Of a DNA stretch of 64,000 nt, positions 48,801-51,800 are shown piece by piece. The notes beneath the pieces are model-generated. The model saw nothing but the letters and a program-made list of their open reading frames with translations, did not search any database and had not been told where the DNA came from. The stretch's first letter is position 1, and each line of letters opens with the position of its first letter. Position numbers and translations under genes: made by a program. The stretch comes from Octopus sinensis (lineage: Eukaryota). The stretch is from the NCBI RefSeq assembly GCF_006345805.1, contig NC_042997.1:178250001-178314000 (forward strand), given 5' to 3'.

Positions 48801-51800
48801 TACCATCTAACCCAGTACTACCTGCCACATGAGGACAGATAGAATTCGATAGTCTTGGTAGGCAGTTCATCTCGGGGAAGGAAAACATTACTGCCTTGCA
48901 AGCAAGTGAAAACTTGGGCCTCAGACTCAATAGGAGCCTCAAAAATAACTAAAAGGAATATATGTTTCCATGATTTGTGAGTTCTTGCCGAATCATTAGC
49001 ATGCAGGGCAAAATGCTTAGTGGCATTTCATCTGTCTTTACATTCTGAGTTCAGATTCCGCTGGGGTTGACTTTTTCTGCGACCATGCTGGGGCACTGCC
49101 TTGAAGAATTTTAGTTGAACAAATTGACTCCAGTACTTACTTTTTTAAGCCTAGTACTTATTCTATCGGTTGCTTTTGCTGAACTGCTATGTTATGGAGA
49201 TGTAAACACACCAATACCAGTTATTAAACAGTGTTGGGGGACGAACATAGAGTCAAAGACAGACAGACACATACACACATGTGCACATACTTTCAGTTTC
49301 CATCTACCAAATCTAGTCACAAGGCTTTGGTTGGCCTGCGGCTATAGTAGAAGACATTTGCTCAAGGTGCTATGCAGTGGGATTGAACCTGGAACCATAT
49401 GATTGTGAAGTAAACTTCTAACAACACAACCACGTGGGTGCAAGAATAGTTACTAGGTTACCTGCTGAGTGGCGTCTTAGGCAATTACATTGACTGAAGG
49501 CTTTGCTTTGAGATAGATTTTAACTGATATTTCTGCTGATCAGTGAAGCACATAGAGACTCCTTCATTGAATCGTATAAGGATAAGTAATATATTTGGAT
49601 CAATCTAATTGCCGTCCTGTGTCTTTTTCTTCAATTTTTTTACTAACATTTATCTCTCTGTATAATTACAGTGCAGTAACTGACAGAGCCAGTGTGATCA
49701 ATCCTGCTAGTATGAAACAAGCATTGATGGTGTCAGCAAAGAGGTTACCTGGTGTCAATATGTTTGAACAAGGTCATGGCAAGCTTGATCTACTCCGAAC
49801 ATACCAAACTCTACAAACTTACAAACCTCAAGCAAGGTAAGCATGGCAAAATTTGCATTTATAAAGTTATTACAGTTCTATATTTTAAGAGATGAGGAAT
49901 TATGTACATTATTTACATTCGACAGATATTTGTCCTCATCTTGTTTGTTGTTAACACGTTTCAGCTGATATTCCCTCCAGCCTTCTTCAGGTTTCTTGGG
50001 GAAATTTTGAACCTAGGTTTCTCATTCCTAAGATATTTTTTGATGTTATTATTATTGTTATTGTTCAGGTCACTGCTTGGAATCGAACTCGGAATCTAGG
50101 GGTTAGCAGCCTGCGCTCTTAACCACTACGCTATATGCCCAAGGGCATATGGTGTAATGGTTAAGAGCACGAGCTACTAACTCTAAGATTCCAAGTTCGA
50201 TTCCAAGCAGTGACTTGAACAACAACAACAACAATAATAATAATAATAACATTGAAAAATGCCTTAGGAATGAGATCCCAGGTTTGAAATTTCCCCAAGG
50301 CACCTGATGAAGGCTGGAGAGTATATCAGCCGAAATTTTGTGTTAACAACAAACAAGATGAGGACAAATATCCATCAAATGTAAATCTTTATATATAAAA
50401 GTGAAGTTGTGTGTCTGTCTCCTACGATTTAGATTCCTAACTACTCCCACATTTTGCGGTGCAGTTTAACCAAAACCGGGTATCTTATAGTCGTGATTCA
50501 TATCGAGCCCTTCTGGGTATTAGCGCGCGTCTATGATGAGTCTACGATTTAAAAAAAAATTTACCATCAATTTTTCACATTTTTAATGCATTTTCGCTCG
50601 GTTTATATAAGGGAAGTAACTCTCTAAAAATGTATTATTAAATCTCAGAACGTAAAAAGCTACAGTAACACCCCACTTTGTGGTTAGCCATATTGAGATG
50701 GCTATTATACTTTACATCTCTAAAAATGCTTATATAGTTATTTCCCTTACAAACCCGAGCAACGCCGGGCAATACTGCTAGTAATGTATAAAGTTATTGT
50801 TAGTTTATGGCATTAGACTCTTCACTGTTGATTCTTCAGAAGGTCAATAGTTTGACTCTTACTTCACACATTTTGTTGTACCATAAGGCAAAGCATACAT
50901 CTGACAATGGCTTAGTTGGCTGAAATTTCAAAGTTACTGTCAACAACATTCTTGTTTAAGATTAATAAATTTGTACTCTATAAAGGTATGAGTGACCATG
51001 AGATTAGTGTAAAATTGTTTCTAATCTAACTGAACATAAAAACAAATATTAATCTCTCTCTTTCTCTCTCACTATATCATCATCATCATCATCGTTTAAC
51101 GTCCGTTTTCCATGCTAGCAGGGGTTGGACAATTCGACCGAGGTCTGGGAAGCCAGGAGGCTGCGCCAGGCTCCAGTCTGATCTGGCAGTGTTTCTACAG
51201 CTGGTTGCCCTTCCTAACACCAACCACTCCATGAGTGTAGTGGGTGCTTTTTATGTGCCACCGGCACAGGGGCCAGAGGAGGCTGGCAGCGGCCACGATC
51301 AGTTGGTGCTTTTTACATGCCACCGGCACGGAAGCCAGTCAAGGCAGCACTGGCATCGGCCATGTTCAGATGGTGCTTTTTACGTGCCACCACCATGGGT
51401 ATCACAACTACAATTTCCATATATATATATACATATATACACACATGCATACACACTCACACCTCACACATAATGTCATCATTTAATGTCTGGCTTCCAT
51501 GTATGGGCTGGACACTTGGACATTTGGACAGGGTCTGTGAAGTTAGAGGAGGATTGCATCATGTTCCAATGTCTACTTTGACATGTGTTCTATAGCGGGA
51601 AGCCCTTCTTAATGATAATCATGTTACAATGTATACTGATAGCTTTTTTGGAGGCACCAGCACTAAAGAAGATTGGCAGATAAAAAGACAAATGTAAAAT
51701 GATGTTTTACATACACACATTCTTTAATCTGGCTTCAAATTTGATGTTAAGATCATTTTTAGCTGTTAAAGAAAAAAAAACAAGTTTATTCATTTCAGAA

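Follow-up and report, generated by a model that had tools for sequence, protein, structure and literature searches.

What kind of element leaves two inverted copies of a short unit, each with tRNA-like promoter boxes and a hammerhead ribozyme motif, head to head beside an exon? The locus lies in the octopus Octopus sinensis, within a 64,000-nucleotide (nt) stretch (contig NC_042997.1 of assembly GCF_006345805.1, positions 178,250,001–178,314,000 of the forward strand), which was analysed as a whole and which we call the window; all positions below are counted within it. An earlier note, made from the sequence alone, had read the palindrome as a non-autonomous short interspersed element (SINE) that is driven by RNA polymerase III (Pol III), terminated by its ribozyme and mobilised by Penelope-like machinery. 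We find that the unit is almost certainly the pseudo-long terminal repeat (pseudo-LTR) of a Penelope-type retrotransposon encoding a reverse transcriptase (RT) and a GIY-YIG nuclease, as judged from its place in the coding copies. As a whole, the locus is probably a decayed insertion of two inverted Penelope pseudo-LTRs that start with a tRNA-like head, likely a Pol III promoter. The copy in the window is a dead insertion in an intron, and nothing points to a host function for it.

The coding partner emerged from flanks shared by family members: at five loci, common sequence upstream of the unit encodes the end of a GIY-YIG-type nuclease. In 29 further loci, chosen by the endonuclease region only, the unit follows the end of the open reading frame (ORF) (28 found by BLAST, and one by eye that retains only the first bases of the head), beginning roughly 30 nt past the stop codon; several of these loci are internally deleted. 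Near-full-length copies run in the order tail, ORF with RT, unit, and their ORF matches RVT_1 (E 1e-7) and aligns over its full length with the homolog P0005 (847 amino acids (aa)). At the other end of the element, among 30 loci picked by the 3′ part of the tail together with the 5′ end of the ORF, the unit is joined in frame to the ORF in most, and the frame through hammerhead and tail aligns with residues 15–150 of P0005 (~39–46%; start residue 15–18). The 3′ half of the unit, comprising the hammerhead and a 33-nt tail, encodes the N terminus of the ORF product, its first ~50 residues. Because the unit stands at both ends of the ORF, with partial tandems as in Penelope elements, and the frame is continuous through hammerhead and tail, the unit is almost certainly a pseudo-LTR. 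A distant Penelope-type protein used as query returned 30 loci, every one of them from this family, and the ORF was also found in sequencing runs of three further organisms, with coverage falling towards its 5′ end. The homologs carry RVT_1 and one, P0016, additionally carries GIY-YIG (PF01541); the family's own nuclease segment gave no Pfam GIY-YIG match and is assigned by its motif pattern and by P0016. By ORF, pseudo-LTR, tail and hammerhead this is, on sequence grounds, a canonical Penelope-like element, placed with the Penelope/Poseidon type by its architecture. The autonomous RT/GIY-YIG element sharing the tail, and the mobilisation by Penelope machinery, that the earlier note had envisaged are thereby borne out; the purely non-autonomous element it described is not, since the unit combines the pseudo-LTR and the ORF start of a coding element.

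At the window locus, the parts of the insertion and its surroundings are as follows.

49672–49836, plus strand: exon of the host gene MBTPS1 (site-1 protease); phmmer match to PDB 8uwc/8uw8, E 9e-21, with edges inferred from AG/GT.
49861–49871, plus strand: left target-site duplication, 11 bp, ATAAAGTTATT, identical to 50788–50798.
49872–49904, minus strand: 33-nt Penelope 'tail', on the left arm only; continuous with the remaining ORF in coding copies.
49872–50140, minus strand: left arm, a complete pseudo-LTR unit with tRNA-like head, AAT run, ORF start, hammerhead and tail.
49953–49995, minus strand: left minimal hammerhead, broken by a 3-nt deletion at the predicted cleavage site and by changes in stems I and II.
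50066–50140, minus strand: left tRNA-like head with A and B boxes, from the sequence and the family columns.
50137–50146, no strand: palindromic junction GCCC-AA-GGGC, matching the native palindrome between ORF end and head.
50143–50217, plus strand: right tRNA-like head (A box 50150–50160, loop CTACTAA 50174–50180, B box 50194–50204).
50143–50385, plus strand: right arm, without tail, 7.9% from the column majority.
50270–50385, plus strand: decayed N-terminal segment of the Penelope ORF; ATG at 50270, with a premature stop in the window copy.
50299–50344, plus strand: right minimal hammerhead (CUGAUGA 50304–50310, extra A 50311, GAAA 50332–50335).
50312–50317/50326–50331, plus strand: stem II of the right hammerhead.
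50386–50781, plus strand: later, unrelated non-autonomous Helitron-like insertion, TC...hairpin...CTAG between A and T.
50782–50787, plus strand: end of the right arm (6 nt), separated from the rest of it by the Helitron-like insert.
50788–50798, plus strand: right target-site duplication, identical to 49861–49871.

The palindrome is real: its arms, 50143–50386 (plus) and 50140–49905 (minus), are 81% identical over 245 alignment columns and are separated by a 2-nt spacer, and the A box, the B box, the (AAT/AAC)n run and both hammerhead-like motifs lie where they had been reported. Its position stood, but its ends had been set too short. The left arm extends 33 nt further, reaching 49872, and the right arm, interrupted by the 396-bp Helitron-like insert, ends at 50787, so that the full insertion covers 49872–50787 between the two copies of the 11-bp target-site duplication. 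The neighbouring exon had been correctly attributed to MBTPS1; the insertion starts 35 nt past the donor site of this exon, within the intron, not about 70 nt from it. The hammerhead core motif occurs twice in the window, against 0.04 occurrences expected by chance. Relative to the column majority of the family the left arm has diverged by 5.2%, and the two arms disagree at three family-polymorphic sites: an A/T position that we denote N7, the 3-nt deletion and a third site. Positions 50288–50386 of the right arm align with residues 19–39 of P0005. Both hammerheads in the window are broken. In the right one the family's CGUU has become UUUU, with loss of the dimer palindrome, and the left one has lost 3 nt at the predicted cleavage site; neither is therefore expected to cut. 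Because of this deletion, the GUU that the earlier note used at this place in the left arm is the family's stem I strand.

The unit (~270 nt) is a high-copy repeat of this 2.7-Gb genome. A first look returned 4,185 candidates, and the 27-nt 3′ half of the hammerhead has 3,332 exact genomic matches; such counts, with the observed decay, suggest a copy number of ~2 × 10^4. We worked from a family alignment of 88 arms from 59 loci (pieces shorter than 100 nt and a duplicate of the window locus were dropped) and from a position-ordered sample of 60 loci taken in chromosome order, two pairs of which look like duplicates. The 88 arms diverge from the column majority by 5.4% on average, with strong CpG decay. 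Sequencing runs of seven organisms contain the unit, and no RNA run was among the holders listed by the search. A single ORF-less head-to-tail pair of whole units occurs among the first 59 loci (L012), and no head-to-tail tandem is evident in the position-ordered loci, which thus lack the arrays of retrozymes; the family is not a tandem retrozyme. At three loci (L006, L010 and L030) one unit insertion in decayed RT sequence of a long interspersed element (LINE)-like kind was later duplicated, taking ~0.9–1.3 kb of flank to three places on two chromosomes. Their shared flanks had been considered as a partner element and were rejected as duplicates of one insertion within a decayed LINE. A read-derived extension past the tail had no match in this genome and was set aside as probably a host transcript of another organism.

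The head has the organisation of a tRNA-derived SINE head, with an A box exactly at +8 and a B box, both kept in the majority columns. Its anticodon loop is CTACTAA in the family, with A at the position in question in 62 of 64 copies; the G of the left arm is a private change, and the Ser-GCU origin proposed for it is therefore unsupported. In a scoring of source tRNAs among those of 30 loci, a set in which Ser and Arg-ACG genes are absent, the nominal best match was Arg-TCT (57.5, against 54.5 for Ala); the head may also resemble Arg-ACG. Where the copies begin bears on the function of the head. In the position-ordered sample, 23 loci extend to the first 18 nt of the head without an upstream ORF and 7 are ORF-linked, a ratio of about 3:1, whereas 19 end in the AAT run (some heads were possibly missed in chaining) and 11 elsewhere. 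In three copies that include the ORF (L311, L185 and L189), the 5′ end lies at the head and no other ORF precedes it. Separately, one locus (L127) has clustered tRNA-Cys-like genes or pseudogenes, with at least six ARAGORN calls within 3 kb.

Four T's terminate Pol III transcription in animals, and the body of the element has no T-run of four or more in 2,317 majority columns; 13 decayed copies have 8 TTTT runs in 20.8 kb. The copy L171 has none, against 4.6 expected from mononucleotide shuffling (P 0.005) and 4.0 from control codon usage (P 0.009). TTTT counts are at expectation in eight Penelope ORFs used as controls, of which several come from one family group; in the four longest there are 9, 9 and 10 runs (three T-matched ORFs of 2.3 kb) and 13 runs (one of 2.65 kb). 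Because 5′ ends pile up at the head, ORF-bearing copies start there and the body lacks TTTT, we consider it quite likely that the head acts as a Pol III promoter for short SINE-like RNAs, as the earlier note had supposed; that Pol III also makes the coding RNA is, on the same sequence features, a proposition with a little less than an even chance.

Several observations pull the other way. ARAGORN called no tRNA in the window and left the head unrecognised, Rfam found no tRNA match in the window region or in the copy L090, and the head has no tRNA cloverleaf (folding z +0.7). The lack of TTTT in L171 is weaker against dinucleotide shuffling (3.0 expected, P 0.047) and against its own codon usage (2.6 expected, P 0.064), and the T-run test was post hoc and made on one family only. 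Phenylalanine is scarce in the seven closest homologs, P0001–P0007 (2.2–3.2%; 53–68% identity), and stands at 4–6.6% in 9 of 11 more distant ones; since the closest homologs share the low value, composition may contribute to the lack of TTTT, although their low phenylalanine could also reflect clade-wide avoidance of T-runs. A search for a sister family without the head, as a paired control for T-runs, returned this family only. RNA reads from a related organism are strand-symmetric over the unit, with no piles at starts or ends; they therefore show passenger transcription only, and neither support nor exclude Pol III. The pile-up of 5′ ends at the head could stem from RT stopping at the palindrome, it is not obvious how an uncapped Pol III RNA would be translated, and none of the copies examined has an intact ORF.

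How the copies end is characteristic of Penelope. They stop at two fixed points 33 nt apart, ~50 and ~85 nt past the predicted cleavage site, and the 33-nt tail is on exactly one arm in 44 of the 46 inverted pairs with both 3′ ends, a figure pooled from three selected sets (16/17, 18/19 and 10/10), the second of which was selected for having the tail. In the position-ordered sample the tail is on one arm in 15 of 18 pairs. An inverted 5′-adjacent copy with a 30–40-nt tail on one end is thus found here as in Penelope elements. Target duplications of at least 9 bp (9–14 bp) flank 10 of the 60 loci, against 7 of 907 re-paired flanks. Inverted copies with a one-sided tail are a published Penelope signature (PMC8557442; PMC11167929, as described there), in the second of these accounts the tail is linked to RT initiation at two internal sites, with hammerhead cleavage found dispensable in vitro, and pairs of Penelope minimal hammerheads on opposite strands, 100–700 bp apart, are on record (PMC4209133). 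With an inverted partner in 26 of the 60 position-ordered loci, the palindrome is routine in this family and not the special dimer that had been suggested.

Immediately upstream of the head, the coding element has a palindrome of its own that the GCCC-NN-GGGC junction matches. Slightly favoured, from the pattern of polymorphic sites, is that the arms often come from different RNAs whose cDNAs were joined at this palindrome: among 24 inverted pairs, N7 is discordant in 6 (P 0.001 if decay accounts for 5%). A single cDNA that folds back and primes itself at the junction would account for the short inverted duplicate of the head that many copies have there, but is unlikely as the general origin of the palindrome. 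N7 is also concordant in 18 of the 24 pairs (P 0.011 against 50%), which counts against two-RNA joining and fits fold-back in some pairs. At the window, however, N7, the 3-nt deletion and the third polymorphic site all distinguish the two arms, and the tail-less arm stops at the second fixed end point and does not run through the tail. Joining of cDNAs from two RNAs thus remains our preference for many pairs, with fold-back of a single cDNA possible for others.

In the majority hammerhead, stem I is 5 bp long, CUGA(A/U)GA is followed by a single extra A, stem II is 6 bp long (GGCUGG/UCAGCC) with an 8-nt loop, and the core ends in GAAA-CG-UU with palindromic ACGU. The family majority and the natural copy L090 have the features of a minimal type I hammerhead; neither window arm does. 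Penelope minimal hammerheads are described as having a short stem I, a long stem II, G10.1-C11.1 and a palindromic 15.2-16.2, and an extra nucleotide between 9 and 10.1 is listed for them (PMC4209133, as far as its description goes). The extra A, earlier entered as a caveat, is thus diagnostic of this class and not a flaw. The classification as a Penelope-type minimal hammerhead and the conservation of CUGANGA and GAAA hold in the majority columns, but stem II is longer, at 6 bp, than had been read. Rfam scans of the window region and of the near-majority copy L090 gave no hammerhead match, and a mir-885 match reflects the hairpin only. As regards stem covariation, the copies are neutral decay products; a single compensatory change in stem II can be deduced, and solely from the protein sequence of P0005 (GW..QP against GR..WP).

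Of 87 aligned copies, among which the choice of query favoured the deletion, 23 have an exact loss of 3 nt at the predicted cleavage site, as do 6 of 29 and 1 of 23 hammerheads of the ORF-selected sets; exact genomic matches number 641 for the deletion form and 3,332 for the intact form, the first of the two search patterns having one degenerate letter. Other deletions outside the AAT run each occur at most twice in the 87 copies. The deletion is independent of N7 (P 1.0), whereas N7 is linked to a site beyond the deletion (P 3e-8; 0.001 within deleted copies), and the arms are discordant for it in 7 of the 9 inverted pairs that carry it. Since it stands on both subfamily backgrounds with their linkage unbroken, and is discordant between arms in those 7 pairs, the deletion arose repeatedly. 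From its position we tentatively read it as a possible scar of hammerhead cleavage in vivo, at somewhat less than even probability. Speaking against the scar, the deletion sits in frame in a GTTGTG micro-repeat and could come from slippage or have originated in two source copies, and in the account of the Anolis element no RNA-seq ends fall at the cleavage site (PMC11167929, as far as described).

In the insertion model that we prefer, Pol III would initiate a few bases upstream of the head, so that 3′ pseudo-LTRs and solo copies would yield short SINE-like RNAs, and a head before an ORF might yield the full coding RNA. The Penelope protein would nick both strands of AT-rich DNA, and reverse transcription would begin at an internal position of the RNA, for which there are two sites separated by 33 nt; because it begins internally, neither a defined RNA 3′ end nor a ribozyme cut would be needed. 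Two cDNAs (in the window, from two different RNA molecules), each primed from another strand of the target, would be joined through the self-complementary GCCC-NN-GGGC at their 3′ ends, and a head-to-head palindrome with a single tail would result. Cutting by the hammerhead would require a dimer or the help of protein, and after a cut the RT could jump the break, from the 3′ to the 5′ cleavage product through the shared GU, leaving the 3-nt deletion. A bolder version, which we find rather doubtful, is that an autonomous coding Penelope captured a tRNA-type Pol III promoter in its pseudo-LTR, purged terminators from its 2.3-kb ORF and runs its own SINE factory, with a hammerhead that cuts in vivo, leaves the 3-nt scar in about one copy in ten and might aid translation of the uncapped RNA (compare PMC13725137).

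The Pol III part of this model competes with an account in which an old tRNA-SINE fragment is a mere passenger in an ordinary Penelope, RNA polymerase II makes all of the RNA (through a TATA-less internal promoter or tandem read-through) and the short copies are 5′ truncations at the palindrome or the AAT run. Coverage of the ORF drops steeply from 3′ to 5′, as in truncating retroelements, the 19 of 60 copies ending in the AAT run attest to sequence-caused stops, and the RNA reads lack strand bias and a start-site signal; in addition, the promoter described for Drosophila Penelope is TATA-less and LINE-like (PMC2377424, as reported there). A passive fragment, however, leaves unexplained that 5′ ends pile up at the outer, 5′ edge of the tRNA-like region, precisely at the start point expected of Pol III, that the A and B boxes are kept in the majority columns, that ORF-bearing copies start at the head and that the body has no TTTT, unlike control Penelope ORFs, and we hold this account to be improbable.

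Far less credible still is the independent tRNA-SINE of the earlier note, with an RNA 3′ end set by the hammerhead, a functional dimer and double-stranded RNA beside MBTPS1, even though most copies are ORF-less and start at the head, and the hammerhead is intact in the family majority. The label 'ribozyme-terminated' is not supported: the predicted cleavage site is followed by ~85 nt more of the unit, and the copies stop at either of two fixed 3′ positions, ~50 or ~85 nt away from that site. Nor is it a SINE distinct from its partner and sharing only a 3′ tail, because the whole unit, head included, belongs to the coding element as its own pseudo-LTR. Both window hammerheads are broken, and the window arms, 5–8% diverged with CpG decay, look like other copies. 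Back-to-back promoters would yield same-sense, non-overlapping RNAs and not complementary ones, and transcription would meet TTTT early each way (50336–50339 in the right arm; 49851–49848 in the direction of the left arm, before the exon), so the claim of double-stranded RNA is not supported; a hairpin could form only in the MBTPS1 pre-mRNA.

Compared with the Penelope/Poseidon type as described for Drosophila virilis Penelope and Anolis Poseidon_Ac (PMC11167929; PMC8557442), the element has the same single ORF for RT and GIY-YIG, pseudo-LTRs, inverted 5′-adjacent copy, 30–40-nt tail at one end, hammerhead over the ORF start, two fixed 3′ ends and AT-rich targets, and in Anolis Poseidon the 3′ half of the pseudo-LTR likewise encodes the start of the protein. 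The pseudo-LTR here, unlike theirs, opens with a tRNA-like head (A and B boxes) followed by an (AAT)n run; the element also differs in a body without TTTT and in the excess of ORF-less head-started copies in our sample, and it has a likely Pol III head where D. virilis Penelope is reported to use a TATA-less LINE-like promoter (PMC2377424). Metazoan Penelope minimal hammerheads (Cervera & de la Pena 2014, PMC4209133) share the traits of the motif and its opposite-strand pairs; the tRNA-like head and the recurrent 3-nt deletion at the predicted site set this family apart from them as described. The pairing of a tRNA-related promoter with a hammerhead is by itself already known, since Schistosoma Sm-alpha and Sj-alpha (PMC2770079, PMC6765202, as described) are short high-copy repeats that join a tRNA-related Pol III promoter to a type I hammerhead. 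Sm-alpha, by those descriptions, forms tandem repeats whose cleaving hammerhead frees monomers, has its promoter at the 3′ end and has no coding partner named; the copies here are dispersed or inverted, mostly derive from RNA that had not been cut, and belong to a coding element as its pseudo-LTR. Non-LTR retrozymes (PMC7229834; bioRxiv 10.64898/2026.07.22.740005) are likewise described as non-coding hammerhead derivatives of Penelope pseudo-LTRs moved in trans, but as head-to-tail tandems with circular RNAs, whereas the unit here is solo or inverted and tRNA-headed; the available text of the preprint does not mention tRNA or polymerase III.

With tRNA-derived SINEs that have a partner LINE the short copies share the tRNA head, internal A and B boxes, a partner-derived 3′ part and high copy number. 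Unlike in those pairs, the partner is a Penelope element that itself bears the head, and the 3′ ends and inversions are of the Penelope type. The short copies behave in a SINE-like way, yet fail to be separate from their partner. Octopus SINEs called OK, OR1 and OR2 were reportedly described by Ohshima and Okada in 1994, and the unit may already be catalogued under some name, among these or in Repbase or Dfam entries outside our comparison. Within the open-access literature (Repbase, Dfam, subscription papers and the supplements of Penelope papers being outside this scope) we found neither a Penelope pseudo-LTR with tRNA-like A and B boxes or Pol III transcription nor SINE-type partners of Penelope elements. 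Little is understood of how Penelope elements transpose, and this family offers thousands of short copies that can be read from sequence. Its ~270-nt RNA could address the origin of the inverted ends and the one-sided tail, with arms often from two RNAs; the recurrent deletion bears on whether minimal hammerheads cut in vivo, and the family as a whole on whether Pol III promoters can drive a retroelement that codes for protein.

Further observations concern other repeats and variants. In seven copies of the coding element (L186, L187, L189, L192, L197, L198 and L206) the 5′ end of the ORF breaks off near body position 400–420, and some copies broken there continue directly in the pseudo-LTR; these copies may form a non-autonomous subfamily with an internal deletion, or the break may be a site of splicing or of RT stopping. 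A genome search with Pfam GIY-YIG returned only other Penelope families with hammerheads of their own and no similarity to the unit in 50 loci. An abundant, young, two-ORF Penelope-like family has a U3-A8 variant minimal hammerhead several hundred bases past its ORF (L092:5163, L038, L047, L050–L053, L058 and L060), and at L096 and L098 a separate 479-aa ORF overlaps the start of the RT/endonuclease ORF. In another Penelope family (L093:5021, 5416 and 6098), inverted hammerheads upstream of a 775-aa ORF combine a long stem II with a palindromic stem III that is longer than usual.

The 396-bp Helitron-like insert belongs to a young family whose best copies are 95–98% alike, with 40 full-length relatives at scores of 95–100% and A|TC...CTAG|T flanks in 7 of 7 inspected copies. 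A first look gave 3,321 candidates for it; a further 3′ end lies in the window at 63539–63571, and a short tandem at G000:C6:109905324-109906551. The window is also dense in at least three other short repeat families (for example at 49077–49433 and 51084–51398), one with up to ~20 copies, which resemble tRNA-derived SINEs.

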